From a virus (Duplodnaviria > Heunggongvirae > Uroviricota > Caudoviricetes): 64,000 nucleotides of DNA. Every line of letters starts with the position of its first letter. Positions within the stretch are counted from its first letter, which is position 1. The position numbers were made by a program, and so were the translations under genes. The notes beneath the pieces are model-generated. The model searched no databases. It was not told the origin of the DNA and worked only from the letters and a program-made list of their open reading frames with translations. Shown here in pieces: positions 18,553-53,983 of this stretch. The stretch lies in the IMG/VR virus record IMGVR_UViG_3300030339_000018. One strand, given 5' to 3'.

Positions 18553-20343
18553 TTATATTTTATTTAAATTAACATTTGAATGTCTAACTGTAACATTTCC
18601 AGTACTTGTTTGATTCATACAACCAAACCAAATATAATCTCCTACTGCAACATTTACTATCCCAGATGATGACATTCCAGAATAATCTGTTGATGTTTGA
18701 AATCTTCTAGATGCTACAATATTATCTAATGACGTTGCATTTTGAAATAATTCAAACTTAAATGTATCTGTGGAATTTGATGGGAATGCTGTAACACTAA
18801 ATGCTAAAACATATGCTGCATTTGAACCTGGATTAACCTGTAGAGTACTTCCCCTACTAACTGATCCTGTTCTAGTTGACGTAAATGCATGTGTAATATA
18901 ATATGAATTTATAGTTACAAATGTTACAGTATAAACTCCATTATAATCTACTGTACCAACCTGAGTTACTGGTTCTCCTGTAAGTAAATTATGTGGTGTT
19001 GTAGTTGTTATTAATACTGTACCAGGAATTGTTCCACTATAATTGGCTACACTTGCTATTGAAGCACTTGCTCCAATTTTAAATGTAAATCCAAGTAATG
19101 AACCAGCACCAAAATTATTAATAGAATGATAAAGATTTATATTAGTTATATTAGTTGCAATAGCATTTTCATATTGATACATTTCTCCATACAATACTTG
19201 CGTACCATTAATTCATTCAGTTCCATTATATCTAAGTACCTGATCAAAGACAGGAGCTGTAATTGTTACATCACTTAATCCAGTCAATTCATTATTTAAT
19301 ATAACTCTTACAAATAAAGTTCCTGCTGTAGCACTAATAACACCAACTCTACCAACTCTAATTACATATTGTAATGGATCAGTTGGTGGAGTCATAGTTA
19401 GTCCTCCAGCTACTGTAGGACTTAAATATACATTAGCTCCAGATACAAAACCTAAAGTATTTAAATTATGTACTACACCAATATTAGTAATTAAACCAGT
19501 ATCTCCAGGTAAAATATCCTGAGTAGCAACCCCAAGAACTGTGGATGTAGCTTCTGATGTTGCAATAGCTAAAGATATAGTACTAGTATCACTTACAAGA
19601 CCAGTAGAATAAACCACTTGACCATTAAGAATAGTTGAACCTGTATTATTAAAACATAATACTGTTGTTTCTTGACCTATTTGTAATGTAACATTTCCTG
19701 CAATCATTATAGCTGCTGTTTTATTAGGAGCATCATAATATAATCTTCCTTGGTCAAATGGACCAACAAGTGGTGCATTTCCAAGTTTAATTCCTTCATT
19801 AAAAGTTGGATAACCATTAATAATTGTTTGTGGTACTGTTTGATCTAATGTTAAATATGATCCTATATTTGCTTTTAATTGTAATTGATCATATAATAAT
19901 TTAGCACTTGGATATTGTACATCTGTTGATGCACCTGAAATAGAAACAACTTTATTAGATATATCTTCTTTTCCTGCAATAGCTGCACTAGTTATATAAC
20001 CAACATCATTTGTAAATGCTGATATTAAAGTTGGAATAGCAGCACTTGTTATAAAGCCACTATCATTTGTTAATTGTGATGTTAAAGTGGGTATAATAGG
20101 TTTACCAGTTAAACTGGCATAAGTTCCTAAAGTAGCTACAGGAGCTAATATAGGTTTATTAAGTATTTCTGCTACTCCAGAAATGGCATTTCAATCTGAA
20201 TTTACTTGAACTCCTCCAGAGCCAAGATTTAAATCATTTACAAATTGACTAAGAAAAGTAGGTCTATTGATTACATTTAATCAATTAATTTTTTCTCCAC
20301 CTAATCCTAGTAAAGTTATGTAGTTGGGGGTTTCTTGTGTCAT
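18553..20343 (-). CDS. tail fibre / receptor-binding-like structural protein, about 596 codons including three in-frame TGA codons (19213-19215, 20191-20193, 20281-20283)
   Basis: ATG at 20341-20343 follows a terminator hairpin. One frame is continuous through TNDxGxITSAAI repeats and Ser/Thr/Gly/Asn-rich sequence. ORF-track pieces 19213..19707 and 18553..19194 are in the same frame and separated only by a TGA. Confidence 0.6.
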
Positions 20344-20922: not shown

Positions 20923-21726
20923 TTAGACAATAGTAGTTCCTGTTACTGTTGGATGAATATGAGTTAAGATTGAACTTAACAGATATTGATTTTGAGCATT
21001 GTTACTAACTTGATTGTTAGCAGCAGCTAATTGATCTCTTAAATTTTGTACATTTAAGTCATTAATTAATGAACGTGTTGCATTTCCGTCAGAATTAATT
21101 AATGATTTAATTTCACAGCAACATTGAGCCATTGCAGCAGCATTTGCAGTTCCTTGAGCTATAATTTGATTAGTAGCATTTTGTGTTTGCATTGCAGCTC
21201 CATTAAAACCTTGTAACGTTGTAGTTGTTAGGTTATTAAATGAATTCAATTGTTGTAATGCATTTTGATTACTTTGTGCAGTAATGTCACGACCTAAATC
21301 ATTAATTCCTTGTAAAGTAGTAAAAGCTGATGTAGCTTGTGCTGTTGATAAATTAGCTACAGAATTTAGAATATTTGCAGCTCCACCATCTATTGCTGAA
21401 TTAACTCTACGAAATTCACTATTTAAGATACTATTTAAGTCACCAGAAGCAACTTGAGATCCTAAATTAGTAATTTGTGATTGTAATGATTGAAATGCTG
21501 GATTAAGAACTACATCAGTTGCTACTGCTGTTGCTGCTGGAGCTACATATCCTGCTCCATATCCTCCACCTCAACCACCACGTCCACCAAGTAATCCACC
21601 TGCTAACGCTCCACCTAATAATCCGGCGATTCCCCCGCCTAAAATTCCACCTCCTGTGCCTAAAGCGGCTCCTGAAGTTCCTGTTCCTCCCATTGCTGGG
21701 ATCATGCCATCTAATGTAAGTGCCAT
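20923..21726 (-). CDS. Gly/Ala/Asn-rich low-complexity structural protein with one in-frame TGA (21571-21573)
   Basis: ATG at 21724-21726 lies downstream of a TAcCTTTG motif (21764-21781). The frame reads MALTLDGMIPAMGGTGTSGAALGTGGGILGGGIAGLLGGALAGGLLGGRGG[TGA]GGGYGAGYVAPAATAV... and continues into ORF 20923..21249 with no other stop. Confidence 0.6.
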
Positions 21727-26197: not shown

Positions 26198-26736
26198 TAC
26201 TTTTTATAGTTTACAATTGTAACATCGCAATTTTGTAATTCTTCTTGAATTATTTCTTTGATAATGTCCCAATTACCACCAGCCAAACCACAACCAATTT
26301 TAGGGAGACCAATATGCTTACCTGCAAAAATATAATTCATTTTACGCATACATAAAGTTATTGCTTCATAATCAACAGGAGCTCCACCAGAAGTCCCATA
26401 TCGACATTGTGTATAAGCATTAACAACAGAAAAAGTTTTTAAATCAGTCCATTGTTTGAATTGATTTCTTACTTTACTATGCGAAAATAATTTAGTTTCA
26501 CCTAAATCATGTTTAGATAAAGTAAATGTATCATAATCAATTTGACCAAGTTTATTTACATCACCTTTGTACTCCATATCTTCTAAAGGAAATGTATTAC
26601 ACTCAAAAGTATTTTTCATTTCCACAGCAATACCAGCACCCATTATACAATAACAATTGCAGCCATGAGCGATTACATCAAACTCACCTTGTAAGGCAAG
26701 TTTGATTAAATCACCATCTATTTCTTTATATGTCAT
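26197..26736 (-). CDS. macro domain protein (ADP-ribose binding/processing)
   Basis: DVIAHGCNCYCIMGAGIA glycine-rich macro-domain core. Confidence 0.45.
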   Translation of the reverse strand: MTYKEIDGDLIKLALQGEFDVIAHGCNCYCIMGAGIAVEMKNTFECNTFPLEDMEYKGDVNKLGQIDYDTFTLSKHDLGETKLFSHSKVRNQFKQWTDLKTFSVVNAYTQCRYGTSGGAPVDYEAITLCMRKMNYIFAGKHIGLPKIGCGLAGGNWDIIKEIIQEELQNCDVTIVNYKK

Positions 26737-28160
26737 TATTTTTTATTTAAAGCAATTTGTAAATATTCATCAGCAATTTTACGTATTTCAGTAAATTTTT
26801 GATCATTAAATAATTCTCCATTTTTATAAACTACTTGTAATTCATCTATATAAGGATTATTTTCACCAAATTGTTCAGTAGAACTTTGAATTGTCATAAA
26901 TCCATTACCAGCTTTATGTAATTTTAATAATCCTGCTTTACTTGCTTTAGTCATATCTGATTTTGGAGTTTTTTGTACATTAATAGATTTACCTTCAATT
27001 TCAACATGTGAAACCTTTACAGCCCACCTATCAGTATCTCTACATAAACCATCTGTATGTAATCCACCACCAGAACCAGTATTAAAATTTTCACAAGACC
27101 AACCTGTTTTAATATATTCTTCATAAATTTTAGGTATACTTTTTTCATTCATTCCATCACCTTGAAGTAAACCGACATTATGATTAATCACTTTGTAGTC
27201 TTTATGATTTAAATGATACCCAAAAAGATTACCTAATTGTTCAGAATATTTAATTACATTAGTTAAAGGATCATTACTATCAGGACGAGGTATAACTCTA
27301 CCAGGTCTATCAATAATTTTCTGTTTAACTTCTGGGTCACCGAGTACATTTTTAATAAAACCATCAGCATCATAACTATCCATTACAATACTAATTGGTA
27401 AATGTGGTTCAGCACGTTCTAACTGTGCTAACACATAATCAATTTCACCACGACCTTGACCCCATACAGTTGCTACTGAATGTTCAGTTGCCCACACAGA
27501 TTGACCAATATTATTATCAGTATAGTATTCTTCAATACCTTCCATTGCTGGAAGATTATCACTACCATTAGAGAATATTAACATAGCCATTCCACCTAAT
27601 ACTGCTCCCTCACGATAAACAGCACCACGTAATCCAAAATCATTCACTGCAAATGCTAAATCTGGCTTATCACAAGTCATATTAAAATAAGGAAGAATCC
27701 CTTTTTTAATATTGAATAAACGAGTTGCTACACCAGACGATTGCCAATTCCACATTAAATAATCTTCAAAATGACTAACCATACAAGCAAACCAAGGTTC
27801 AGTTGATACAATAGTGAAACAAACATTACCTGTTGGAAGAACTGTGCCTTCTTTAACACATTTAATTTCCAATGGGAAATAACCTAATTTTTTAACTTTT
27901 TCCCAAATTTCTTTAGGAAAGTATTTATCAGTACCAAAGACACGTTTGCATCTTGCAGCACCTCTTTCAATATTTTCCTGTGTTACTTTCTGCATGAAAT
28001 ATTCTTTAAGAATATATTGCATCCCAAAGAAACAAATTTCTGCATGTTGTCCACCCTTACGAGCTTCACCATATGAATAAAAATGATTAATTCCAGCTGG
28101 ACGTTGTAACCAATGAGTTATTTTATAAGCATCAGTATCTATTACACTATTTTTCCACAT
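26736..28160 (-). CDS. nicotinamide phosphoribosyltransferase (NAMPT/NadV-like)
   Basis: 474 aa, with the NAMPT size and composition typical of phage NadV; adjacent to an NMNAT-Nudix gene. Confidence 0.6.
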   Translation of the reverse strand: MWKNSVIDTDAYKITHWLQRPAGINHFYSYGEARKGGQHAEICFFGMQYILKEYFMQKVTQENIERGAARCKRVFGTDKYFPKEIWEKVKKLGYFPLEIKCVKEGTVLPTGNVCFTIVSTEPWFACMVSHFEDYLMWNWQSSGVATRLFNIKKGILPYFNMTCDKPDLAFAVNDFGLRGAVYREGAVLGGMAMLIFSNGSDNLPAMEGIEEYYTDNNIGQSVWATEHSVATVWGQGRGEIDYVLAQLERAEPHLPISIVMDSYDADGFIKNVLGDPEVKQKIIDRPGRVIPRPDSNDPLTNVIKYSEQLGNLFGYHLNHKDYKVINHNVGLLQGDGMNEKSIPKIYEEYIKTGWSCENFNTGSGGGLHTDGLCRDTDRWAVKVSHVEIEGKSINVQKTPKSDMTKASKAGLLKLHKAGNGFMTIQSSTEQFGENNPYIDELQVVYKNGELFNDQKFTEIRKIADEYLQIALNKK

Positions 28161-28974
28161 ATCTCTTATTTATTTTTTTAAATATTTATTTATTTTCTTC
28201 TACAAATTCTCCAATAATATATTCTGTACGAATTTTACCTACTACTTCGGCTTCACATGAACCACGAGGACAGCATTTAAATTCTTGGCATCTAGGACAC
28301 CAAATTAAATCCGTTTCTTTTGTTGGTATATCAGGTATTACCATTGTTTATTAATTAAATATTCATAAATTTCTCTCCAATCAGTTTCTGGATCGAATCC
28401 AGCTTTATCATCCAAAAGGACACTAAAGTAAAACTTTCTATTAAAATTACCAGTATTAGTATTATGAATATCAGTATTTTTATTAAAGAAATCAACAGTT
28501 ATATTATTTTCTTTAAACATTTGTCTAATACGCATTAATTCAGATGGGTAGCACGAACTCCATAAAATAATTTTAGATTCAGGTAATGAACTAATTAATT
28601 GTAAGCATTCTAAAGCATCATTATTAATCCATTCATTTTGATTAGTAGTATAATTACTTTTTAAACATACACCATGAAGATCAATACACCAATAAATAGT
28701 CTCCCAATTGCGCTCATCCATTACTGAATAAGCACGTTCGATTGATTTGATTATTGACATACTATTAAATTTTAGTACAAGAACAAGTTGCTTTGTTCAA
28801 AGCATAAGAACTAGTTCTAAATCTATCTTCTGGATCTGGGATTGCTTTTAAAGAAAAATCAGTTGTATTTACATGGTATCCTTTAGATTTCAAATGATAT
28901 GCAATTATTTCTTTAATATCTGCAACACTTAAATTAATAGTTACTATTTCGCTAATTTCCATATTAGATATTTT

Positions 28975-29868
28975 TCATTTTAATAAAAATTTAAAAAGTT
29001 TTTTATGTTCTCCGACCAAAATATTTTCTACCTCTGGAGTCATTTTAACCCATTTTAAGGCAGCTATATCATCTTGAGGTTGTGGAGATCCAAACAAAGA
29101 TTTACACTTGTAAAAATGAGTCATAATAGAACGATCTGTCATACCTCTATATCTCCAATCTTGTATCTTCATTGAAGTTACAAATTCAAAGTTGGATAAT
29201 TCAAGTCCTGTTTCTTCTCTTCCTTCACGTTTTGCTGCAGCTTCGTCTGATTCATCTTTAATGTCAACGAATCCACCTACAAACCTCCACTCTTTTTCAT
29301 TAGGTTTTTGACCTAATAATAATTCACCTGCTTCATTAAAAATCGCTACATCTACAGTTGAGTAAACTGTTGGATATTGATTATAAACTGAATAAATTAT
29401 ACCTGCTCTAAATTCAGAGGAAGATTTAACCTTTTTAGATATATCAACACGAATATCAGTTGCAGAGATAAAAGTATCAGGAGTTAATTCCTGAGTCTTA
29501 AATTTACCTTCATAAAAAGGAATAAATGAATCTTTACTTCCGTAAAGAGTTACTGATTCCATATTAAAGATATCTCTAATTTTTTCATCAAGTTTATTAC
29601 TCCAAACTGCATTAGACTTTTGGTCTCTCAAAGGGAATATACCAGCAATACGTAAATCATTCCCAAATGCCTCTTTTAACATCAAACTACGAGTTAAAAA
29701 ATCCATTGGATGTTTCATATTACCTATTGTAGGACTAACGCCTAGAAAGATAATAACTTTATCATGTTTGCTAAGTACGAAGTTAATCAATTTAATATGT
29801 TCACTATGTAGCTCATTAGTTTGAAATCTTCCAATTATAACTCCTACATCTGTTGTTTTAATATCCAT
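28975..29868 (-). CDS. bifunctional NMN adenylyltransferase / Nudix hydrolase (NadM-Nudix-like); ends at a TGA that is in frame with the next ORF (28765..28962)
   Basis: N-terminal GVIIGRFQTNELHSEH nucleotidyltransferase motif; C-terminal Nudix box GGFVDIKDESDEAAAKREGREETGLE. Confidence 0.6.
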   Translation of the reverse strand: MDIKTTDVGVIIGRFQTNELHSEHIKLINFVLSKHDKVIIFLGVSPTIGNMKHPMDFLTRSLMLKEAFGNDLRIAGIFPLRDQKSNAVWSNKLDEKIRDIFNMESVTLYGSKDSFIPFYEGKFKTQELTPDTFISATDIRVDISKKVKSSSEFRAGIIYSVYNQYPTVYSTVDVAIFNEAGELLLGQKPNEKEWRFVGGFVDIKDESDEAAAKREGREETGLELSNFEFVTSMKIQDWRYRGMTDRSIMTHFYKCKSLFGSPQPQDDIAALKWVKMTPEVENILVGEHKKLFKFLLK

Positions 29869-34924: not shown

Positions 34925-35512
34925 TTACTTATCTTTAGGATAGCGAAATTCATTTCTTGCACTATTCTTATTCTTTGATTTAAATGTATCTAATTGAGAA
35001 TCACAGTTAGGACAAATACACCTATAATTTTCTCTAATGTTATTTGCTGCATCTCCATCAATATGATCTAATATTAAAACTAAATGTTTATTATTCCATA
35101 CAGAATCCATCCCACAAATTGCACATTTATTACCTTGTTCTTTAAGAATAAAAGGTTTTACAGTAGTAATACTATAATTACCTCTTTGATATTCTTTTGG
35201 AGAAGTAAGAAAATAATCATATAATTCTTTAGATTGAAATTCTTTTTGACATGTAATTCCACAATATTTTCTTTGAGTAGTTGTATCTAAAGGTTTTCCA
35301 CAATTTACACAAACTAAATCAGCATATTTATTTACACCTTTTCTAAATGTTTCAGATTCATTTATCTTTCTACGTTGTGGTAATTCAATTCCAAATTTTT
35401 TAGCAACTTTTCTTATATTTGAACCAGTGCAACCATAAGTTAAACCAATTGTATTATAAGGGATATTTTGTACTAAAATTAACTCCTCTAATTCTTCTTT
35501 TATATATTCCAT
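34925..35512 (-). CDS. HNH endonuclease with Zn-ribbon repeats
   Basis: ...LVLILDHIDGDAANNIRENYRCICPNCD... HNH motif; TAcCTTTG promoter-like motif at about 35529-35545 upstream. Confidence 0.5.
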   Translation of the reverse strand: MEYIKEELEELILVQNIPYNTIGLTYGCTGSNIRKVAKKFGIELPQRRKINESETFRKGVNKYADLVCVNCGKPLDTTTQRKYCGITCQKEFQSKELYDYFLTSPKEYQRGNYSITTVKPFILKEQGNKCAICGMDSVWNNKHLVLILDHIDGDAANNIRENYRCICPNCDSQLDTFKSKNKNSARNEFRYPKDK

Positions 35513-35630
35513 TTTTATTAATTATTTATACTACAAAGGTACAAATAATTTTTGATATAAAATAGTTTGAATTAGTTAATTTATGTTAAAAGTGTACTGT
35601 TCTATTCAGTTGAACTATCCAGGCATTTAG

Positions 35631-35701
35631 CAAGTACACTAGGATTCGAGCCTAGATCAGGAGTTTTGGAGACTCTTATGCTACCATTGAATCATATACC
35701 T
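35631..35701 (-). tRNA. tRNA-Trp (anticodon CCA)
   Basis: Anticodon loop CTCCAAA; T arm CTAGG-CTCGAAT-CCTAG. D arm is imperfect. Approximate coordinates. Confidence 0.45.
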
Positions 35702-36138
35702 ATTTTAATTAATATCACATATTAAAGCTTTTCTTTTTTCACAAACTCCATAATAAAATTTAAGATTTTTTAATCCTCTCAAATAAACATTTTGTCTTTG
35801 TGTATCATCCCAATGAATTACAATTTTTGATTTTATAGTTTTATCTGTAATCCAATAATTTGGTTTATTTTTAATATATTCAATAAAATGTTTAATACAA
35901 TTTTTTGCCCATATTAAACTCTTTAATCCATCTTTTCCAGTTACTTTTAAAAATTGATAACCTTCTTTTCTTTTACCAATTTGTAATTTAACATAATACC
36001 AATCACATTTATTAGTACTATCACATTCTAATTCTAAAAAAAGAATTTGACCTGCTTCATTTTTAGTAATATAATAATAAATATCTTTATATTTATTATT
36101 AGGTTTTAATACAATTTCATACATATTATTAATTTTTG

Positions 36139-36219
36139 TACATATAGCAGGACTCGAACCTGCACGCCCCTACGAGCATCGGAGTCTAAACCCGATATGT
36201 CTACCATTCCATCATATAC
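36139..36219 (-). tRNA. tRNA-Leu (anticodon TAG), type II
   Basis: Anticodon loop TTTAGAC, long variable arm GCTCGTAGGGGCGTGC, T arm GCAGG-TTCGAGT-CCTGC. Confidence 0.6.
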
Positions 36220-36226
36220 GCATTTG

Positions 36227-36299
36227 AGCCAAAGGTGGGGCACGATCCCACAACCCTCTCATTACAAGTGAGATACTCTACCAATTGAGCTACTTCGGC
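36227..36299 (-). tRNA. tRNA-Thr (anticodon TGT)
   Basis: GCCGAAG acceptor, D arm GCTCAATTGGTAGAGT, anticodon arm TCTCA-CTTGTAA-TGAGA. Confidence 0.65.
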
Positions 36300-36435
36300 A
36301 ATTTTAGAGGGTCACTATTAACCTCTTTGATGTTGTTTCTTCTTATTCGTACACGTGTTTGAAATTCAGACTGGACTACATTTCTTTACCAGATAGTTTT
36401 AAATATATAAGACTAATGAAAACCTATATATCTTG

Positions 36436-36522
36436 CGGAGAGTACCGGATTCGAACCGATGTGCCCTGTTACAGGCCACTAGTTTAGCAAACTAGCACGA
36501 TAAACCACTCTGCCAACTCTCC
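36436..36522 (-). tRNA. tRNA-Ser (anticodon GCT), type II
   Basis: GGAGAGT/ACTCTCC acceptor, anticodon arm CTAGT-TTGCTAA-ACTAG, long variable arm, T arm ATCGG-TTCGAAT-CCGGT. Confidence 0.65.
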
Positions 36523-37073
36523 AATACATTACTTATGTTGCATATGATAGTGTTTAACTCTCAAATCAACTTTACTTTGTTTTAATTTACTATTAGCAAA
36601 TAAGTTATAAACAGGTTCTTCTAATATGTGATGAATAACATATATAGGAAAATTTAATATATCTATACCAATACAATATTTAACTATCATATTTTTCTTG
36701 CAAATTTATGAATCAACCATCCAAAAACTAAAACAGCCCCTATTATAATTCCAATAATAATTCCAATTCCTATTTTAAACATTATTTTTTAATTTACGTT
36801 TTTGACCATGATATTTAATTTCAATCATAAATATTCATAAGTGACCTTCTTTTTTTTTCCAATCATCTCCATATGATAAACCGCATTAATAGGTCTATCT
36901 TCAATTATACAAACTCCATTCCCAATATAATTATACGATCTTGCATACATTTTATCATTGGTGGAATCTCTAATACATATTTCTTTACCTTTTAAATACT
37001 GCCAATTAATTATAACATCATTACATAATTGATGAAAACTTCCTTGAACTATTTGCATATTATTTAATTTTTG

Positions 37074-37161
37074 GGTGAAAGGTGGGATTCGAACCCACAT
37101 TAGTCATTACAACATTCCTGATTCACAATCAGGTCGGCATCCCTTACCGGCTACAATCACC
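37074..37161 (-). tRNA. tRNA-His-like (anticodon GTG), non-canonical: two U.U pairs in the acceptor stem and about 18 nt between the anticodon and T arms
   Basis: Anticodon arm CCTGA-TTGTGAA-TCAGG, T arm GTGGG-TTCGAAT-CCCAC, possible G-1. Confidence 0.35.
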
Positions 37162-37171
37162 ATATAAAAAG

Positions 37172-37254
37172 TGGGACATGATGGAGTCGAACCACCCGAG
37201 TCCGAAGACAACTGCTTTACAGGCAGTCCCGCTACCCCTACGGTATAACATCCC
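37172..37254 (-). tRNA. tRNA-Tyr (anticodon GTA), type II
   Basis: Anticodon arm ACTGC-CTGTAAA-GCAGT, long variable arm TTGTCTTCGGACTCGG, T arm GGTGG-TTCGACT-CCATC. Confidence 0.6.
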
Positions 37255-37554
37255 ATATAATAGTCTTTCCTATCAGTCATACTTCCTTTAAATTCTGTTT
37301 AGATAATTCATCCTAACGGCAAAGCAGTATTGTATAAACCAGTATTCTTTAAAATTATGCTTGTACCGGAGTATTAGCTTCTTTAATTTTTTCAGCAATT
37401 TTAGTATTAACTGCTTTTAAATTTGCTTGTGCTTGTTCAACTGTAACTATTTGATCATAAGCTAATGCTTTTAAATCATTTAATGACATTGTATCAAGAT
37501 TTACTTGTTGTTCATTCATTGTTTTAATTTTGACTATTATTTATCTCTTTTTAT

Positions 37555-38031
37555 TTATCTTACATTTATAATATTACTAAGTGTACCTTTACTACTAATA
37601 TTATATTTTAACATTAAATCTTTATAAGAATATCCAGAGTCACGATCAGCTTTAATTTCTATAACTAATTCATCTGAATATTTTTTATGTGCATTAGAAG
37701 CTTTATTAATTCTTATTTCTTTAGATTGATCCATCATATTATCACTATGTGTACCTATTTTAAGATTATCCCAAGAATTATTTAAAGAATTACTATCCAT
37801 ATGTCGAATCATTATATTTTCTTTATAAATTTCTTCTCCAAATTTTTGATATGCTTGTAATCTATGTACTCTAACTTTAATAGTTTTACCTAGTAATTTT
37901 GTACTAATAGTTTTATAACCATTATTAATTGTGCCTAATAAAATTTTTCCAGATTTACTAATGCATGTACCATCTTTTTCAACTTTGTACCCTAAATCAA
38001 AAAGTACTTTTTCATAATATGTATATTCCAT
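37555..38031 (-). CDS. HNH_3-family homing endonuclease
   Basis: ...VHRLQAYQKFGEEI...IRHMDSNSLNNSWDNLKIGTHSDNMMD... It is preceded directly by a tRNA-like gene. Confidence 0.5.
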   Translation of the reverse strand: MEYTYYEKVLFDLGYKVEKDGTCISKSGKILLGTINNGYKTISTKLLGKTIKVRVHRLQAYQKFGEEIYKENIMIRHMDSNSLNNSWDNLKIGTHSDNMMDQSKEIRINKASNAHKKYSDELVIEIKADRDSGYSYKDLMLKYNISSKGTLSNIINVR

Positions 38032-38044
38032 ATAATAATTTAAG

Positions 38045-38127
38045 CGGAAGAAGTAGGTCCCGACCCCAAGATGTTTCCGTCCGTACAGATTTCAAGTCTG
38101 TCTTGCTACCTAAGCAATTCATCTTCC
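38045..38127 (-). tRNA. tRNA-Ser-like (anticodon TGA if minus strand), type II-like with aberrant T arm; possibly a pseudo-tRNA
   Basis: Acceptor GGAAGAT/TTCTTCC, D arm TTGC-TTAGGTA-GCAA, perfectly palindromic anticodon stem ACAGA-CTTGAAA-TCTGT. No canonical TTCRA T loop. Confidence 0.3.
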
Positions 38128-38206
38128 ATTAACGAGATTGCTTTGAACCTCTAAAGTCAACCTATATTGATACATATAGGATTTTAGTCTTTCTGGAGAA
38201 AGAATA

Positions 38207-38992
38207 TTATTTTTTAACTATATTTAAAATATCATAAAATTTACACCATTTTCTTATAGCATTATCTGTAACACCATAAAATTTACCAACAGCAACAAAT
38301 GAAATTAATTCTTTAAATTTAGATATAAGTTCTTCAGAAGTAGGTCTTTTACTACCATTAATTTTGTGTGAACATTCTTGAGAACAACATTTATTTTTTC
38401 TAGATTTACCAATTAATTCTTTATTACAGTATAAGCAATATTTAGGAATAATTTCTTTAATTTCTTTAACTTTAATTTCTTTAATTATTTCAATTGGAAT
38501 AATATTTTCATTCACAATAAGACTTTCTTCTTTTTTACCTTTACCTCTATAATTATCAGTAAAAGCGTGACAATTAGGGCATAACATTTGTAAATTTTCA
38601 ATACAATGATTAGTATTTACTCCATCAATATGATGTAATTCTAAAGGAATAGGTTCTTCCATTCATTCAGTATTATTACATTTTTCACATCTATATTCCT
38701 TAATACCTTCTTTTAATAATCTTTTATTTAATTTTGATGTAGAAAAAGTAGAATAAGATACTAAAATTTCTTCAATTGGTTGGGCAAATTTAATTTGTGT
38801 ATATCTTAATCCAACATTCCATACTTGCCCAGTAAAATGATCTGTATTTAAATCATATTCTTTAATTTTAGCATGAATTGTTTTGTAATTTCCTCCAACT
38901 GCTTTTAATCCTATTTGTCGGCATACTCCAGCAATAGATAAATTTTCTTTTACTGCAATTCTAATTTGTTCTTCTGTGTACTTAGTTCTCAT
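38207..38992 (-). CDS. HNH homing endonuclease with N-terminal HTH and C-terminal DNA-binding module; single gene containing an in-frame TGA at 38663-38665
   Basis: ORF-track pieces 38663..38992 and 38207..38662 are in one frame. TGA lies between YRCEKCNNTE and MEEPIPLELHHIDGVNTNHCIENLQMLCPNCH, so the CxxC...HH...N...CxxCH HNH motif spans the TGA. TAcCTTTG promoter-like motif at about 39009-39025. Confidence 0.6.
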
Positions 38993-39074
38993 TTTTATAA
39001 TTATTTAATACACAAAGGTACTAAATAATTTTGAGTCTACCAAATCGAATTATGTTAAAATATATTAAAAATAG

Positions 39075-39155
39075 TACCCGTAGCAGGAGTCCAACCTGCA
39101 CGCTTTTAGGCGCTCCCGCTTAAAAGGAGTGTGTCTAGCATTTCACCATACGGGT
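39075..39155 (-). tRNA. tRNA-Leu (anticodon TAA), type II
   Basis: ACCCGTA/TACGGGT acceptor, anticodon arm CTCCT-TTTAAGC-GGGAG, variable arm CGCCTAAAAGCGT, T arm GCAGG-TTGGACT-CCTGC. Confidence 0.55.
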
Positions 39156-39209
39156 ATTAATTGATTATTTTATATATAATCATAGTTTTAAGAACCATTC
39201 GTTCTTTGT

Positions 39210-39280
39210 TGTCCCATCTAGATTCGAACTAGAGCTATTTGAGTCAAAGTCAAATGTGTTAGACCACTACACTATGGAAC
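39210..39280 (-). tRNA. tRNA-Gln (anticodon TTG)
   Basis: Anticodon arm TTTGA-CTTTGAC-TCAAA; T arm CTAGTTCGAATCTAG. Confidence 0.6.
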
Positions 39281-39548
39281 AATATTATTTTTCTATGCAG
39301 TAAGTGCTTAGACTTGCCTATCATACCTATCAGAATCATTTAATCTGGCACTAATCTTGGTTAGAAAAATTTAATTTAAAGGTACTGAATATCTTAACCC
39401 ACCAGTACAGTCTCAATTCAATTGTATCGCTGTATACGAATACCTTCATGAGGATGGAAGAATTGCTCACACGTTACCTTTATATTGTAAGAATATCATC
39501 ATTAGAAATACAATAAATTGTATTTCATCACACTACTATATTCTTGAG

Positions 39549-39619
39549 CGGGAAGTGTAGGAATCGAACCTACGCCTATTGATTAACAGTCAACTGCTCG
39601 ACCTTCGAGCTAACAACCC
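39549..39619 (-). tRNA. tRNA-Asn (anticodon GTT); acceptor stem with two U.U pairs
   Basis: D arm GCTCGAAGGTCGAGC, anticodon arm GTTGA-CTGTTAA-TCAAT, T arm GTAGG-TTCGATT-CCTAC. Confidence 0.55.
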
Positions 39620-39742
39620 AGTTTATAATTTTTGCTTACCATCGCTTCACTGTTAAAATTACAAAAATACATCAGTTACCATTATCGTTGTTTCTGCATC
39701 AACGCTTCATCCGAAGAGGTCTATAGTCGGTTACTATAACTG

Positions 39743-39816
39743 AGCGATAAGTGGGTCTCCAACCCACAACCTCCGACTTGGAAGGACGGCACTCTAAGCA
39801 ATTGAGCTATTATCGC
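39743..39816 (-). tRNA. tRNA-Gly (anticodon TCC)
   Basis: GCGATAA/TTATCGC acceptor, anticodon arm CCGTC-CTTCCAA-GTCGG (one U.U), T arm GTGGG-TTGGAGA-CCCAC. Confidence 0.5.
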
Positions 39817-40248
39817 ATTTTAATTTAATACTATATCAGGGGTTTTCTATTGTACATTTAGCGAGCTCCCTTATACACATCATGACTAAATTCATGTTAT
39901 TTCCATTTTACAGAAACTATAATATTAAATTATTTTATTAGTTGTAATCTATCAAAGATTAAACCATTATTTTCTATTGCTATGGCTGTAATTGTGCCAC
40001 ATAAATCTGGTTCATGAAATTCAGAAAATGTATATCCATTGTTTGCTAACTTTGGAATCCATTCATCTAAATTTGCTGATAAAAAGAATAAATAGTTGTT
40101 ATTCCATTCTTGTGTTTCTTTATTATCAAGGAGGAATTGTGCTACTGCATGTGCTCCTTGGACACATCCATATACGCTATTTAATCTATTATTAATTAAT
40201 ACGTATAGTTTTCTTTCTTCTACTTGTTCCATTATTATTATTATTTTG

Positions 40249-40320
40249 TGCACCGCCCCAGACTTGAACTGGGAACCTATCGGTTAAAAGCCGAGAGCTC
40301 TACATTGGAGCTAGCGGTGC
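40249..40320 (-). tRNA. tRNA-Lys (anticodon TTT)
   Basis: GCACCGC/GCGGTGC acceptor, anticodon loop CTTTTAA, T arm CCCAG-TTCAAGT-CTGGG. Confidence 0.6.
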
Positions 40321-40481
40321 GAGTTTGTTGGAATAGGCAAATCACCAACTATGATACATGCATTGAAAAGAATCACTTTTACTAATTGTATCTTTCACAT
40401 AAAAGTAGATAATGTGATTAGCATTAAACGTACTTTTTCTATACTAAGTGATGTAGCAGAGCAGTTTATTAAACTGTTGTG

Positions 40482-40553
40482 TGAGCCTAATAGGAGTCGA
40501 ACCTATATCCCAGGATTCGTAATCCTGTGTTCTATCCATTGAACTATAAGCTC
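40482..40553 (-). tRNA. tRNA-Arg (anticodon ACG)
   Basis: Anticodon arm CAGGA-TTACGAA-TCCTG, T arm ATAGG-TTCGACT-CCTAT. Confidence 0.6.
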
Positions 40554-40563
40554 TCATTAATTG

Positions 40564-40636
40564 TGACCTCTGCTGGATTTGAACCAGCGACACCTAGATC
40601 TTCAATCTAGTGCTCTACCAACTGAGCTAAGAGGTC
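40564..40636 (-). tRNA. tRNA-Phe (anticodon GAA)
   Basis: GACCTCT/AGAGGTC acceptor, D arm GCTCAGTTGGTAGAGC, anticodon arm CTAGA-TTGAAGA-TCTAG, T arm GCTGG-TTCAAAT-CCAGC. Confidence 0.7.
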
Positions 40637-40683
40637 AAGCAAGATTTTTACTTCTAGGAAGAAATACCTTGAAAAAGAACCGT

Positions 40684-40753
40684 TGCGATATCAAGAATTG
40701 AACTTGAATCAAATGGATATGAGCCAAACATTCTACCATTGAACTATATCACA
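40684..40753 (-). tRNA. tRNA-Met/Ile2-type (anticodon CAT), elongator-like
   Basis: Acceptor TGTGATA/TATCGCA, anticodon loop CTCATAT, anticodon stem with two U.U mismatches, T arm TCAAG-TTCAATT-CTTGA. Confidence 0.5.
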
Positions 40754-40754
40754 G

Positions 40755-40828
40755 TGGGGAAAATAGGACTTGAACCTATGACCTCCCGGGTATCAGCCGG
40801 ACGCTCTAACCAACTGAGCTATATCCCC
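40755..40828 (-). tRNA. tRNA-Ile (anticodon GAT)
   Basis: D arm GCTCAGTTGGTTAGAGC, anticodon arm TCCGG-CTGATAC-CCGGG, T arm ATAGG-TTCAAGT-CCTAT. Confidence 0.65.
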
Positions 40829-41164
40829 ATTATTTTTCTAAATATTGGAATATAAAAATCTATGGATTGTATATCTTTTCTATGAATAGATACTTTATAA
40901 TTATCATATCTTTTAGATGTATTAGGTTGTCCAATTGGATCTTTCCATATTCTAAAATCTTTCATTACAAAATTTATGTATTCTCCTTCAAATACAACAT
41001 CTATTGGATAATGATAATACTCATTCATACCACTAGGTTTTAATTTATGTAGTATAATCCAACAAATTCTTTTATTACTTAATAATCTTGGTAAACTTTT
41101 AAAAACTTTTCTTGTCATTTGGATGTATTTTATTAATTAATACTGTCCGCCATTTTAATAATTT

Positions 41165-41239
41165 GAGCTCATACTCCGATTTGAACGGAGGAAATATTGG
41201 TTTTGCAGACCAACGCGTTAGACCACTTCGCCATATGAG
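41165..41239 (-). tRNA. tRNA-Cys (anticodon GCA)
   Basis: GCTCATA/TATGAGC acceptor, anticodon arm TTGGT-CTGCAAA-ACCAA, T arm TCCG-TTCAAAT-CGGA. Confidence 0.65.
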
Positions 41240-41402
41240 CATTTAAAAATTCAGTTCTTGCATAAGAAATAATAAACGTTAATTAGTTTTTTGTACGGGA
41301 GTTACACCTATTTATTATATTTACACAAACTAACTTATGCCTAAGTAAATAGCCCACTATATACGCTTCCACTATTTGTTTGCTTCAATCTGAATTTTAT
41401 TG

Positions 41403-41535
41403 TTGCGAGCGCCGGATTCGAACCGTGTCTCGGGGTTATAGCTTTATTCTATTCTAAAATAAATTTTAGTTTGAACATTTCACAGACTTTTAAACCTGTA
41501 TGAGCCCAGTGAGCTACCATTGCTCCACCCTCGCA
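41403..41535 (-). tRNA. initiator-like tRNA (anticodon CAT, GGG/CCC anticodon stem) interrupted by an intervening sequence of about 62 nt in the anticodon loop
   Basis: 5' half GCGAGGG-TG-GAGCAATGGTAGCTC-A-CTGGG-CTCATA..., 3' half ...CCCCG-AGAC-ACGGTTCGAATCCGG-CGCTCGCA. Between them lies about 62 nt of AU-rich sequence with the hairpin CTAAAATTTATTTTAG. Confidence 0.4.
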
Positions 41536-41549
41536 TCTGTTATATTTTG

Positions 41550-41622
41550 TATAAGCGGTGAGACTCGAACTCACGACCACATGCTCCCAAAGCATGCATT
41601 CTACCAACTGAAATACGCCTAT
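41550..41622 (-). tRNA. tRNA-Pro (anticodon TGG)
   Basis: Anticodon arm CATGC-TTTGGGA-GCATG, T arm GTGAG-TTCGAGT-CTCAC. Confidence 0.6.
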
Positions 41623-41729
41623 ATTTAATTAGAAATCCAATTTTTCAGGATCTTTGAAAGATAAAAACTCATTTGCGAATAATAATCCGTTCTTTAAATA
41701 AATATCTTGTTTCATATCTAAATCATTTG

Positions 41730-41802
41730 CAGTACTGATGGGAATCAAACCCACTAAATCTCGATAGACAGTCGAGTGCACCAATCGTTATGCGCCAGTA
41801 CT
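41730..41802 (-). tRNA. tRNA-Asp (anticodon GTC)
   Basis: AGTACTG/CAGTACT acceptor, anticodon arm CTCGA-CTGTCTA-TCGAG, T arm GTGGG-TTTGATT-CCCAT. Confidence 0.6.
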
Positions 41803-41808
41803 ATTTTT

Positions 41809-41882
41809 GTAATCGGTATCGGATTCAAACCGATGTTACTTCATAGAAGGTGAAGTGTGCTAGGTCACTGCACTAACCGATC
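41809..41882 (-). tRNA. tRNA-Glu (anticodon TTC)
   Basis: D arm GTGCAGTGACCTAGCAC, anticodon arm CTTCA-CCTTCTA-TGAAG, T arm ATCGG-TTTGAAT-CCGAT. Confidence 0.6.
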
Positions 41883-41885
41883 ATT

Positions 41886-42806
41886 TTATTTTAATAACTT
41901 AATATCCTTTTGTTTAGATGGTAATTCATAAAATTTACACCATTTTCTTATTGTATTGTCACTTACTCCAAAATCCTTTCCTAATTTTAAAAAAGAATTC
42001 ATCTTAATTAATTCTAATAAATCTTCTTTAGAGGGTCTTTCAACTTTTCTTTGATTTAAAGCTCTTAGTTTTTCTTTTTCAGAATAACCATTTTCGTCAC
42101 GAAATACTTTTTCTTTAATCTTAGGCATTGTAACAATACCTATCGTTTGATAAATAATTTCTTTTGTTTCAAGAGAATGTAAAACTATTTGAATAACTTC
42201 ATCAATATTAGTTTTAATCTGATTTTCAGCAATTCTAATAATATTCCAACCATTGTTTTTTAATAACAAATCCTTTTCGCCATCTTTAATTTTTCTTTCC
42301 TCTAACAAATGTTGAGAACCATCTATCTCAATAGCTAACTTTTCATTAATGAACGCAAAATCAATAAAATATGGAAATACACTATATTCTCTTGCAATTA
42401 AGTATTTTTTATCTAATTCAAATCTTTCTAAGGCTTCTTTAAATAAATTTTCAGGATAAGATATAGTGGAAGTTCTCCAAGCTGTATTCTCTGGATGTTC
42501 TTTCATATATTTTAGTCTAGCAATTCTTATTTTTTCTTTAGACTCATCAGAATGATGTAATGTATACTTTTTAGAAGCAATTTTTCGTGCTTCAGAAAAA
42601 GAACGAGTAAGTCCTTTTAAAATTCTTTGAACTATACAAGTAGATAAATCATATTCTTTTTTAATATCATTTATAGAATAATTTAATTCTATATATTTAT
42701 TTTTAATATCTAACAAATTTAATGCTGTTAATTTACATGCATTTTGATGGGCAATTTGTCCGCCTTTATTAGAAAATTCTAGTCCACATTTTTCACAAAT
42801 ATTCAT
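41886..42806 (-). CDS. homing-endonuclease-like protein: N-terminal Zn finger, central restriction-endonuclease-like (DUF559/Vsr-like) domain, C-terminal HTH module
   Basis: CEKCGLEFSNKGGQIAHQNAC; FAFINEKLAIEIDGSQH; C-terminal KLGKDFGVSDNTIRKWCKFYELP, the same module found in the HNH at 38207..38992. TAtCTTTG promoter-like motif at about 42814-42828. Confidence 0.4.
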   Translation of the reverse strand: MNICEKCGLEFSNKGGQIAHQNACKLTALNLLDIKNKYIELNYSINDIKKEYDLSTCIVQRILKGLTRSFSEARKIASKKYTLHHSDESKEKIRIARLKYMKEHPENTAWRTSTISYPENLFKEALERFELDKKYLIAREYSVFPYFIDFAFINEKLAIEIDGSQHLLEERKIKDGEKDLLLKNNGWNIIRIAENQIKTNIDEVIQIVLHSLETKEIIYQTIGIVTMPKIKEKVFRDENGYSEKEKLRALNQRKVERPSKEDLLELIKMNSFLKLGKDFGVSDNTIRKWCKFYELPSKQKDIKLLK

Positions 42807-43441
42807 TTTATACTATTTTATATAGTACAAAGATAATAAAAATATTTGGTTAGGACAATAGAATTTCAAAATTAATTAAAAATAAGTTTAATGGATAAGT
42901 TAATCAAAAATATAAATATCTAACACGAGTTAAATATTTATATTTCTAACCAATTATTCGATAGGGATGTGAAAATTATACCTATTGTAGTAGGTATAAT
43001 TTATATAAAGTACCATCAATTGCTTCTAGTAAATCATCCAGAATAGCATGCATATGTGTGTATTTTGCATCTATAACATCATATCTATTTTCATAGATCA
43101 TTTCTTTTATACCCTCAAGATACTCTGTTGCAGTTAATTTATATCCATAAATTAAACTACTAAGATCATACTCTACTACTTTTTGTTCACAGCCCTGATA
43201 AACCTCTATTAATCTATCTGCAATTTCAGGAACTTCTTGATAAAAATCATTTAATGCTAAATGTTTAATACCAGAACTTGCTCCTTGGATTTGTAAATGT
43301 TTGATATGTGACATCGTCCCTATGGAAACTATTGTTCCAAAAAAACTTTCAGGTTTTGTTTTAATTTTACCCATATTTTAATATTTTTTATTATTTAATT
43401 ATCTTAATCTGTACAAAACTTTAATTCTTTTTCTATTTTTA

Positions 43442-43981
43442 TTAGAATACATTATTTTTTAAATACTGATTATAAACATAAGCAGCATGTAATTCACAGA
43501 TAAAATATCCTAAAAATATTTTTCTTTTTAATACTGAATCCCATATATTAGATAGCCATTTCTTCCTAGTTTCTACCCAACATACACCTGTATATTGAGA
43601 TGAAGTATTAGTTCTAACATACCCATCACTTACATTATATCTATTAGAAACAATTTCCAAATTATCTAAATAATTATTTAATTTATTCCCATCAATATGA
43701 TTAATAACAGTAGTTCTTTTATTTACTATATAATCAAGAAAAGACATAGCAACTAAAATATGAATACAATAACTTTTTCTAATTTTATTTTTTGTAAGAT
43801 TTACAGATAAATAATTAGTTCCACATGGTTTTAATATTTTATCTTTTTTAGCTTTATTATTACCTAATGATAATATATTACCAAAATTACTACATTTATA
43901 TAATCCTTCAAATGTAGGTATATCTTTCCAAATTTCTTGCATATTTTCCTTTGTTTTATTTAATATGCAAAGATACAACAT
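43442..43981 (-). CDS. HNH endonuclease fused to an AP2-like DNA-binding domain; true start probably an internal ATG near 43942
   Basis: ...INHIDGNKLNNYLDNLEIVSNRYN... followed by YTGVCWVETRKKW (AP2 YxGVxW). TAtCTTTG promoter-like motif at about 43973-43988. Confidence 0.5.
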   Translation of the reverse strand: MLYLCILNKTKENMQEIWKDIPTFEGLYKCSNFGNILSLGNNKAKKDKILKPCGTNYLSVNLTKNKIRKSYCIHILVAMSFLDYIVNKRTTVINHIDGNKLNNYLDNLEIVSNRYNVSDGYVRTNTSSQYTGVCWVETRKKWLSNIWDSVLKRKIFLGYFICELHAAYVYNQYLKNNVF

Positions 43982-44030: not shown

Positions 44031-44762
44031 TTACTGTTCATTTGTTGGTTTAAGCCAAAGTTTGGTATGTTTAAAAATATACAACTTTAAATCCCTATAT
44101 TTACACAACATTTCTAAAGTTTTAAATGTATCAAACTTAAAACATTTGTATAACTCTTCACGAATACGTTCTTCAGACACAACTCCCATTTTGTATTCAT
44201 AATCATAGTTCTCAATAACTTCTTGCATATTTGCTGGAATAGCTAAATTTTTAGTTAATGCAAAACGAATAGCTCTTAAAATTCTAAGGGGATCATCATT
44301 AAATGTTACATTACATGGAAGAGGTGTTCTAAGAATTCTAGCTCTTAAATCAGCTTCTCCATTAAATGGATCAATAATATTTCCATCTTCATCTTTAGCC
44401 ATAGCATTAACTGTAAAATCCCTACGTTCAAGATCATCATATAATGAACCAGGTACAATAATAGGTGTACGAGTTCCAGGTATATAACCAATTTCCTTAC
44501 GTGCCATTACAAAATCAGCAACACCTTTATATTTATGTCCTACTGGAAATTTAGCACGAATTGTATAACAATCTTTAGTTACTAAAAATATTTCAAACAT
44601 ATCTCTTCTTAAGATTTGTTCCAATAAAATAAACATATCACTAGCTTTACTATGTGAAGCAAGTAATATATCATTTGGAACAGCAACATAATCGACATCT
44701 TTATTTACTAATCCAAGAAATTCATCTCGAATCTTACCACCTACTTCATAGAATTTAAACAT
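44031..44762 (-). CDS. minimal class II nucleotidyltransferase (CCA-adding enzyme / poly(A) polymerase head domain)
   Basis: VGGKIRDEFLGLVNKDVDYVAV, i.e. the GGxxRD...DxD head-domain signature; 243 aa. Confidence 0.55.
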   Translation of the reverse strand: MFKFYEVGGKIRDEFLGLVNKDVDYVAVPNDILLASHSKASDMFILLEQILRRDMFEIFLVTKDCYTIRAKFPVGHKYKGVADFVMARKEIGYIPGTRTPIIVPGSLYDDLERRDFTVNAMAKDEDGNIIDPFNGEADLRARILRTPLPCNVTFNDDPLRILRAIRFALTKNLAIPANMQEVIENYDYEYKMGVVSEERIREELYKCFKFDTFKTLEMLCKYRDLKLYIFKHTKLWLKPTNEQ

Positions 44763-50622: not shown

Positions 50623-50648
50623 AATAATTTATTTTATGTTATTAATTG

Positions 50649-50725
50649 TGGTATTAGAAAGATTCGAACCTTCAACCTCGTACCTTGCGGGTTTAACGTG
50701 CTCTAACCAATTGAGCTATAATACC
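50649..50725 (-). tRNA. tRNA-like gene with canonical acceptor, D and T arms but a non-canonical 25-nt anticodon/variable region; identity undetermined
   Basis: GGTATTA-TA-GCTCAATTGGTTAGAGC-A-[CGTTAAACCCGCAAGGTACGAGGTT]-GAAGG-TTCGAAT-CTTTC-TAATACC-A. No 5-bp stem plus 7-nt loop can be drawn in the bracketed part. Confidence 0.4.
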
Positions 50726-53700: not shown

Positions 53701-53983
53701 TATAATTTGTTTAAGTTCTTCTTCATCTGTTGCTATAACTAATTTATCATATCCAAATAATCCAAACATTCTATAACCACGACATAATATATATCCTTTA
53801 TAATCAATACCATTATATTGATATTTATGTTCTAAAATAAAATATCCTATATTAGTATTAAATAACCATTTTAATATTTTCATAATTAATTTTTTATTAA
53901 TTTAAAAATGGAATAAGTGGGCTTCACAGCAGACTTATTCACGAACTCAAAAACACTATATCATTAATCAAATGATTGTATAG

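Follow-up and report, generated by a model that had tools for sequence, protein, structure and literature searches.

Judged from sequence comparison, positions 38207..38992 of the window (the whole 64-kb stretch of phage DNA that was analyzed) are one HNH endonuclease gene on the minus strand, with a single in-frame TGA codon inside its nuclease domain that most likely stands for tryptophan. The gene would be an intact, free-standing, tRNA-array-associated member of the CCCH type of HNH nucleases in which the codon for Trp-110 changed from TGG to TGA. We infer both the decoding of this codon and its timing, and consider it probable that the TGA is read as tryptophan when suppression operates. 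The phage itself appears to be uncultivated, with a genome of ~168 kb and 27% GC; the best match to its DNA polymerase in INPHARED was 33% identical, and no close cultured phage was found there. Recoded homing endonucleases were known before (Borges et al., bioRxiv 10.1101/2021.08.26.457843), and what is added here is a free-standing HNH case within a tRNA array, in a lineage in which recoding is sparse.

Both open reading frames that make up the gene share one minus-strand frame, according to the ORF track and the sequence. The upstream frame (38663..38992, 109 amino acids) ends ...YRCEKCNNTE, the downstream frame (38207..38662, 151 amino acids) begins MEEPIPLELHHIDG, and a single TGA at 38663..38665 is the sole interruption between them. 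Joined, they comprise 261 sense codons followed by a TAA stop and specify a product of 261 amino acids, with the TGA as codon 110, at an invariant Trp position, and an ATG as codon 111. With tryptophan assumed, a predicted peptide across codon 110 is CNNTEWMEEPIPLELHH, and the junction reads NNTE-W-MEEPIPLELHH. The HNH (beta-beta-alpha-Me) nuclease core, delimited by invariant alignment columns and by alignment to McrA, occupies residues 102-142 (38567..38689, minus strand). C102 and C105 (38678-38689) are encoded upstream of the TGA, and H120/H121, N133 and C138/C141/H142 (38567-38635) downstream of it. In other words, the TGA sits between the two Cys pairs of a CxxC...CxxC arrangement, the candidate ligands of a structural zinc, whose codons were verified. 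In an alignment of 25 homologues C102, C105 and C141 were invariant and C138 was at least 90% conserved; H120, H121, N133, N140 and H142 were also invariant and match the HNH motif of EcoKMcrA. All of the invariant residues are retained in the window protein.

Because the Pfam HNH models stay below threshold on this protein, profiles of its own family and of the PHROG collection were used. We built a family HMM from 19 homologues of full length, the query not among them, and it matched the joined protein as a single envelope from residue 1 to residue 261 (388 bits). In this model the N half alone took up columns 2-111 and the C half columns 113-285, the missing column being the Trp, and placing W at codon 110 gained 7 bits over X or G. 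PHROG 10822 ('HNH endonuclease') matched residues 2-251 in a single stretch (E 4.8e-54), and ten more HNH PHROGs matched the joined protein. Pfam HNH (PF01844) aligned to residues 102-142 over profile positions 1-41 of 47 and reached 14.9 bits on the joined protein, short of its cut-off of 21.4; the C half alone gave 17.6 bits, and every score, those of the halves included, was sub-threshold. PF13392 was likewise under its cut-off at 13.5 bits. Precomputed matches to PF01844 or PF13392 exist for several of the homologues, and a search of a large protein collection with the joined protein returned 942 relatives, mostly 260-300 amino acids long, at 98-100% query coverage. A first-pass annotation of this DNA had described the two frames as one HNH gene in one frame with a single TGA, and the family HMM and PHROG 10822, together with the invariant Trp column, confirm that description well past anything chance would produce. 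It had expected one HNH envelope to span the TGA, which these two profile types provide and Pfam HNH alone does not. Its placement of the TGA inside the domain also holds, the codon lying after the first pair of zinc ligands and before the catalytic HH, as does its claim that neither half is a complete CCCH-type HNH domain, on which the alignment, the family HMM, PHROG, the structure model and the McrA alignment agree.

An AF2 model computed from the alignment had a mean pLDDT of 80.8. Strands were placed at residues 109-110, 113-114, 118-121 and 134-137, the first of them including residue 110, and a helix follows at 139-146. Residues 100-146 have a pLDDT of ~90, and their arrangement agrees with what a beta-beta-alpha-Me core would predict. 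The predicted domains are an N-terminal HTH-like region, the CCCH zinc-finger HNH core, a disordered linker, and a C-terminal zinc ribbon of the form CxxC/CC with HTH. The top Foldseek matches in the PDB were HNH nucleases (Cas-HNH, McrA, Cap5 and Hpy99I), all non-significant at E > 0.1. The only PDB sequence match was the CCCH HNH domain of EcoKMcrA (PDB 6ghc), weak at E 0.33 (residues 102-144 against 216-263), and the same structure was among the top Foldseek hits at E 0.42. EcoKMcrA has the same CxxC...HH...N...CxxCH layout as the window protein, but its flanking domains and its modification-dependent restriction are unrelated to it. The product is best described as a putative active homing enzyme.

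Gene callers list the two halves as separate proteins, and an ATG stands directly after the TGA, so ribosomes might be imagined to terminate at the TGA and reinitiate at the ATG, yielding either a two-chain nuclease or a C half that is active alone. An A-rich internal start is conceivable in a phage that needs no Shine-Dalgarno sequence: of 60 gene starts examined, only 3 had a Shine-Dalgarno-like motif, and the sequence ahead of the starts is rich in A. The Met that follows the Trp is, however, an ancestral residue, present in the TGG-bearing gene of the closest relative (L002) and in homologues P0007 and P0099, and is not an evolved restart. A split product would also spread the zinc ligands C102, C105, C138 and C141 over two chains, the family HMM sees the halves as one continuous protein, and the only split entry among the 120 listed homologues is the window phage's own C half. 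A split gene is therefore most implausible. Few Shine-Dalgarno motifs and A-rich leaders are typical of Bacteroidota and their phages, and since this phage is without Shine-Dalgarno leaders, its host may tentatively be placed among Bacteroidota-like bacteria.

The column occupied by the TGA is one of tryptophan throughout the family. Trp stands there in 119 of the 119 listed homologues that cover the column and in all 25 of the aligned homologues. Selenocysteine, or glycine as in code 25, was considered for the TGA and rejected on this conservation and on the preference of the family HMM for W. The closest homologue, L002, is 85% identical at the amino acid level and has TGG followed by ATG at this position. 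As L002 occupies the same tRNA locus, the sequences indicate that the TGA arose in the window phage lineage by a single TGG>TGA transition (G>A). It is not a sequencing or assembly error; the same gene, TGA included and without a single SNP, was found on four more metagenome contigs independent of this one. The C half of the protein was indexed in 44 collection blocks, and JGI had called the 261-amino-acid product under code 4 on three short contigs and had called a 40-kb contig (L001) under code 11. No TGG allele was found within the phage population; the 90% cluster contained only the two halves and the JGI code-4 call of the same TGA-bearing DNA.

Taken alone, the HNH gene does not distinguish a sense TGA from a TGG>TGA nonsense mutation. 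The first-pass annotation had counted it as independent evidence for sense TGA, which it is not, a single such change in a dispensable gene being just what a fresh pseudogene would look like. The gene may thus have lost its function in the decay phase of a homing cycle, leaving only the 109-amino-acid fragment. The lone G>A difference from L002 fits such decay, as do the C-terminally truncated or decayed members known in the family (L009, L030 and L036, for example) and the position of the gene, which lies between tRNA genes, among standard-code genes and outside the island at 18.5-21.7 kb in which TGA occurs in frame. Tryptophan is encoded by TGG alone in the four remaining HNH-family genes of the window (34925-35512, 37555-38031, 41886-42806 and 43442-43981), so endonuclease genes here are not recoded as a rule. 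All contigs of the window phage are identical at the HNH gene; fixation in so clonal a population could be hitch-hiking, and the same identity leaves no within-lineage conservation test for the TGA. Against decay, no second lesion was found across the 261 codons. Relative to L002, dN/dS was 0.31 upstream of the TGA and 0.39 downstream of it, with 0.064 in the core just after, and the downstream part is thus not relaxed compared with the upstream part. With the evidence from other genes and other phages given below, we regard a fresh pseudogene as rather unlikely. A sense TGA in the HNH gene is credible because the tail-fibre gene and the Gly-rich gene of the window, the lysozyme gene of related phages and recoded homologues of the HNH gene itself also carry TGAs or other stops that appear to be sense codons.

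Within the window, the chief support for reading TGA as tryptophan comes, on alignment, from a tail-fibre-like gene (18553..20343, minus strand), which contains three in-frame TGAs at 20281-20283, 20191-20193 and 19213-19215. With the TGAs masked as X, amino acid 51 aligned with W in 51 of 53 homologues (QVNSDWNA.SGVAEILNK) and amino acid 377 with W in 6 of 6 (LRYNGTEWVNG), and the alignment at amino acid 21 was ambiguous. With tryptophan assumed, the peptides across the TGAs include QVNSDWNAISGVAEILNK and YNGTEWINGT, and PHROG 9729 ('tail fiber protein') spans amino acids 45-77. Adjoining this gene is a Gly-rich gene (20923..21726, minus strand) with an in-frame TGA at 21571-21573, followed by 215 open codons. 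As the first 107 of these contain no ATG, GTG or TTG, the region beyond the TGA needs read-through to be made, and PHROG 8119 covers residues 10-251 across the TGA. In this island at 18.5-21.7 kb tryptophan is written four times as TGA and once as TGG. These two genes bear directly on the pseudogene question: they need TGA to mean tryptophan, so the TGA of the HNH gene would be read whenever theirs are.

The phage is nevertheless not uniformly a code-4 phage, and on the sequence TGA is a working terminator for most genes. The window holds 230 in-frame TGG codons against 5 sense-candidate TGAs in 3 genes, plus one ambiguous pair of ORFs (28975..29868 and 28765..28962) that share a frame, are separated by one TGA and have an ATG 12 nt after it; a true stop is equally likely there. 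Nineteen ORFs end in TGA, 10 of them with an ATGA overlap onto the next start, and 15 of the 19 have a TAA or TAG within 0-19 codons after it. TGA terminates about 15 genes of the window, a figure that also lends weight to the pseudogene reading. No in-frame TGA was found in the DNA polymerase, primase, helicase, RNA ligase or thymidylate synthase genes of the window, or in the 10 kb beyond it. Open reading frames covered 0.742 of the window under code 11; by this crude measure, limited to the window, coverage was 0.802 when TGA was taken as a sense codon and 0.783 when TAG was. All of the window genes are on the minus strand, and GC is 24-30%. The 'phage's recoding' of the first-pass annotation therefore stands for a few genes in which TGA appears to be tryptophan, and is partial at most.

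No dedicated decoder of TGA came to light in the part of the genome searched, the 64-kb window plus 10 kb out of a genome of ~168 kb. A tRNA with a UCA anticodon was not found in the window by ARAGORN or by Rfam at the gathering threshold, in the tRNA array by Rfam at E<=1, or by a custom scan of both strands for UCA anticodon loops. There was no tRNA in the 10 kb beyond the low end of the window, no UCA tRNA in L006, and no tRNA at the relatives' loci in the metagenome scan. Neither RF1 nor TrpRS was found among the proteins scanned. A perfect stem-loop with a UCA triplet on the plus strand at ~38090 was rejected as a suppressor; it is the antisense of a degenerate tRNA-Ser(UGA) and lacks D-loop and T-loop features. 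The only Trp tRNA found in the window has a CCA anticodon (35630..35701, minus strand; ARAGORN, Rfam and sequence). The missing UCA tRNA does not disqualify decoding of TGA as tryptophan, because suppressor tRNAs were detected in only 35% of code-4 phages by Borges et al.

The extra tRNA-Trp(CCA) supplied by the phage raises another explanation, in which the phage has no dedicated recoding machinery and ordinary misreading of UGA at the per-cent level, by the CCA-anticodon tRNA-Trp of host and phage alike, lets through a trace of a potentially toxic nuclease, so that the codon acts as an attenuator. Read-through in the Qbeta A1 protein is per-cent misreading of UGA by a tRNA-Trp with the CCA anticodon. 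The missing UCA tRNA fits this explanation, as does the UGA-A context of the HNH codon. Backup TAA or TAG codons also lie nearer behind TGA terminators than behind TAA terminators (medians of ~3 and ~10 codons; p 0.007, one-sided and post-hoc). Read-through by the CCA tRNA-Trp is conceivable but hard to square with the tail-fibre gene, where three TGAs in one frame would reduce per-cent read-through to its cube and leave almost no product; a more efficient means of reading TGA would have to operate in this genome. The lysozyme gene of related phages has two TGAs. The limited reach of the suppressor search also tells against leaning on the missing tRNA, and attenuation by leaky UGA reading seems very improbable. 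A related idea, which we hold to be unlikely, is a two-state code that needs no UCA tRNA. The CCA tRNA-Trp, which shares U11-A24 with the Hirsh UGA suppressor, would come to read UGA when the host RF2 was disabled or outcompeted, the damage would be limited by the tmRNA of the phage and by backup TAA/TAG stops close behind TGA terminators, and the single TGA of the HNH gene would be a selected gate that confines the endonuclease to the UGA-reading phase.

Related phages point to TGA as tryptophan in the same lineage. One metagenome scan recovered relatives on contigs of 142-205 kb whose flanking gene is 74-78% identical at the amino acid level. Two of them, L096 and L097, share this gene at 74-75% identity and have a tail lysozyme gene in which a single Pfam Phage_lysozyme2 domain (100.6 and 109.6 bits) spans a TGA, located at the conserved GLAQ-W motif; two TGAs are present in the gene. 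In L096 an endonuclease gene of the GIY-YIG/NUMOD3 type likewise contains a TGA in frame.

The wider HNH family was surveyed at 80 IMG/VR loci encoding relatives. Most of its genes sit in tRNA arrays, across many unrelated phages, and several carry stop codons at positions where other members have an amino acid. In the L036 homologue two W columns are occupied by TGA, one of them the column of the window TGA. The L073 homologue contains four TGAs: one pair falls on consensus-W columns, that of the window TGA among them, and the second pair on columns that hold W in other homologues. No stop types besides TGA occur in the cores of these two genes. Another 12 IMG/VR loci carry TAG in frame, between one and four times each and in several cases where homologues have Gln (ENLQ, for example), and the homologue on a 162-kb ENA contig (L009) has a TAG at a Gln column that its source translates as Q. 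Decay would not give one stop type at matching amino-acid columns, so these sequences suggest that the family regularly carries the recoded codon of the phage in which it resides. The TGAs of L036 and L073, at the identical column and at further Trp columns, are in particular unlike decay and speak against a pseudogene in the window phage. The comparison has its bounds: the recoded homologues (L036, L073, L043, L077, L085 and others, and L009) belong to the same family as the window gene and have recoded stops at Trp or Gln columns, but they are only 49-60% identical to the window protein, have 2-4 recoded codons each where the window gene has one, and in many cases are a short form of ~165 amino acids without the C-terminal DNA-binding part.

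These observations suggest how the HNH gene may have come by its TGA. The phage lineage would decode TGA as tryptophan in only a few genes, among them those for the tail fibre and the Gly-rich protein beside it and, in related phages, that for the tail lysozyme. TGG is kept for nearly all tryptophans, and many genes of replication and metabolism end in TGA. Where TGA can mean tryptophan, a TGG to TGA change in the HNH gene may simply be neutral, AT-biased synonymous drift, which is the simplest account. The full-length nuclease of 261 amino acids would then be made only when, and as far as, TGA suppression operates; with suppression off, the product would stop at 109 amino acids, without the catalytic half of the domain. 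As a side-effect, the output of endonuclease may be tied to the recoded, presumably late, phase. The first-pass annotation had gone further and called the gene apparently adapted to the recoding, which over-reads a change in one of three Trp codons that is compatible with drift, in a window whose four other HNH-family genes lack it.

Late-gene-restricted recoding of TGA to Trp is established from the work of Borges et al., whose criterion was a rise of >5% in code-4 coding density on contigs of at least 100 kb, and block-wise dual coding in phages has been described in the Mgcod preprint (10.1101/2022.06.29.495998). The window phage resembles dual-code phages in that its replication genes use the standard code, with TGA even serving as a stop, and a few structural-type genes appear to use TGA as tryptophan. 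It differs from them in that only 3 window genes (5 codons) are clearly affected, besides the one ambiguous pair, in the absence of a suppressor tRNA, RF1 or TrpRS from the window plus 10 kb, and in a crude coding-density gain for sense TGA that barely exceeds the gain for sense TAG. Homing endonuclease genes are, according to the first-pass annotation, often regarded as code-naive passengers, a view already contradicted by the group I intron homing endonuclease that Borges et al. found to be TGA-enriched in the TGA-recoded Agate phages. In the proposal of those authors, the stop codons hold the endonuclease back until the late phase, when TGA is recoded. Like the Agate gene, the window gene is a presumably selfish endonuclease gene with an in-frame TGA, and it too has standard-code neighbours in a phage in which TGA is recoded to Trp. 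In contrast to it, the window gene is free-standing in a tRNA array, is of the HNH type with no intron detected, and has one TGA among three Trp codons, with no statistical preference for TGA; its phage, of ~168 kb, belongs to an environmental lineage with much sparser recoding than the Agate phages.

For annotation, gene callers that use the standard code split the HNH gene, the tail-fibre gene and its neighbour, and a blanket use of code 4 would wrongly lengthen the roughly 15 genes that truly end in TGA. The widespread tRNA-array HNH family seems to follow the code of its resident phage, TGA>Trp in some and TAG>Gln in others. Resident selfish genes would therefore drift with the code of the genome around them, and such HNH genes could be used as extra markers of recoding.

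The gene lies in a tRNA array; besides its 22 to 23 tRNA genes, the window encodes a CCA-adding enzyme and a tmRNA. Directly upstream of the HNH gene ARAGORN placed tRNA-Gln(ttg) and tRNA-Leu(taa) (39074..39281, minus strand). Phage T4 has a comparable case in SegB, a homing endonuclease encoded in the T4 tRNA gene cluster; like it, the window gene is a free-standing, putative homing endonuclease gene between phage tRNA genes. SegB is a GIY-YIG enzyme of a standard-code phage, and we know of no sequence relationship between it and the window HNH protein. An endonuclease-free allele of the site was not found among the loci compared, and the single syntenic relative, L002, also carries the gene, in the order tRNA-Gln, HNH, tRNA-Ser(tga), tRNA-Tyr, tRNA-His. 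Just downstream of the HNH gene in the window (38045..38127, minus strand) is a degenerate remnant that aligns with the L002 tRNA-Ser(tga); its T-arm is spoiled and neither ARAGORN nor Rfam called it, and the L002 counterpart is intact. Beyond the remnant lies a second free-standing endonuclease gene (37555..38031, minus strand; Pfam HNH_3 at 38.7 bits, above the cut-off, and PHROG 59), which appears as an alignment gap at the syntenic L002 locus and thus varies by presence and absence between the two phages.

The DNA around the tRNA array was rich in endonuclease genes, of which at least five members of the HNH family map to within 9 kb of it (window 34925-43981, minus strand). These were encoded, all on the minus strand, at 34925-35512, 37555-38031 (an HNH_3 gene), 38207-38992 (the one with an in-frame TGA, referred to here as the HNH gene), 41886-42806 (with an additional DUF559/Vsr-like match), and 43442-43981. 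The HNH_3 gene comes directly after a degenerate tRNA-Ser(UGA) (38045-38127, minus strand), which has a spoiled T-arm and was called by no tool. In L002, the syntenic locus carrying the closest diverged homolog of the HNH gene, the corresponding tRNA-Ser(UGA) (L002:2148-2238) is intact and the HNH_3 gene is absent. This comparison with L002 suggests that an endonuclease was inserted beside the tRNA-Ser(UGA) gene, or at its expense.

Also apparently interrupted was a helicase (6254-8832, minus strand), found as a 99-aa piece with the ResIII N-terminal part (8533-8832, minus strand) and a Helicase_C piece (6254-7240, minus strand), with a NUMOD1-containing ORF of 388 aa (7271-8437, minus strand) encoded between them. 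From this arrangement, it looks like a replication gene has been invaded by an endonuclease.

Several tRNA genes were unusual. An initiator-like tRNA with anticodon CAT and a GGG/CCC anticodon stem (41404-41534, minus strand; Rfam tRNA 28.6 bits, just below threshold) was interrupted directly after the anticodon loop position, where about 60 nt are inserted, and could be either intron-containing or disrupted. The tRNA called as Cys(gca) (50648-50725, minus strand) had an anticodon arm of 20 nt rather than the usual 17 nt, with no clean 5-bp stem, and the 88-nt tRNA-His (37073-37160, minus strand) had two mismatches in its acceptor stem and a variable region some 20 nt long. A phage-encoded tmRNA was identified at 53981-54400 (minus strand) by a full-length match to Rfam RF00023 (75.5 bits), with no ARAGORN call at this position. 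A tmRNA near tRNA arrays was also present in L009 and L053, two loci with distant homologs of the HNH gene.

Homologs of the HNH gene in L009, L036, L043, L055, L073, L077, and L085 were of a short form of about 165 aa, and shared a TAA in one column, after VE.G. Downstream of this TAA, a remnant (FGEG...) of the next residues of the long form was still recognizable, and in L043 a tRNA gene begins within 3 nt. The short form appears to be an old C-terminal truncation common to its members.

Among all TGA-terminated ORFs in the window, a backup TAA or TAG followed the TGA at a median of about 3 codons, with an immediate TGA-TAG pair seen twice, while the median behind TAA terminators was about 10 codons (one-sided Mann-Whitney p 0.007, a post hoc comparison with four long cases excluded). 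The nearer backup stops behind TGA could reflect selection against read-through extensions. An identical 11-nt context, ACTGAATGAAT (Thr-Glu-TGA), surrounded the TGA of the HNH gene (38657-38670, minus strand) and the third in-frame TGA of the tail-fibre gene (19207-19220, minus strand), and at both sites the change from TGG to TGA creates a perfect TGAATGAA direct repeat. The common context and repeat could be a coincidence arising from a common TEW motif, or the product of templated mutation. One TGA and 12 nt separated the gene for an NMN adenylyltransferase/Nudix protein (297 aa) from a 65-aa ORF in the same frame (28765-29868 together, minus strand); this TGA either terminates the gene or is a fourth case of read-through.

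The same gene belongs to a set of auxiliary genes at 26197-29868, 44031-44762, and 14359-15663 (all minus strand), which encode a nicotinamide phosphoribosyltransferase, the NMNAT-Nudix protein, a phosphatase, a CCA-adding-enzyme-like nucleotidyltransferase, and an RNA ligase. All of these combined constitute an NAD-salvage and tRNA-repair/maturation set next to the tRNA array. Two large proteins (49045-50622 and 56690-57871, both minus strand) had no family match; their N-terminal regions are related over about 80 aa (32% identity), and both carry an almost identical motif, YFPEV(I/T)ELNFD, at the C-terminus.
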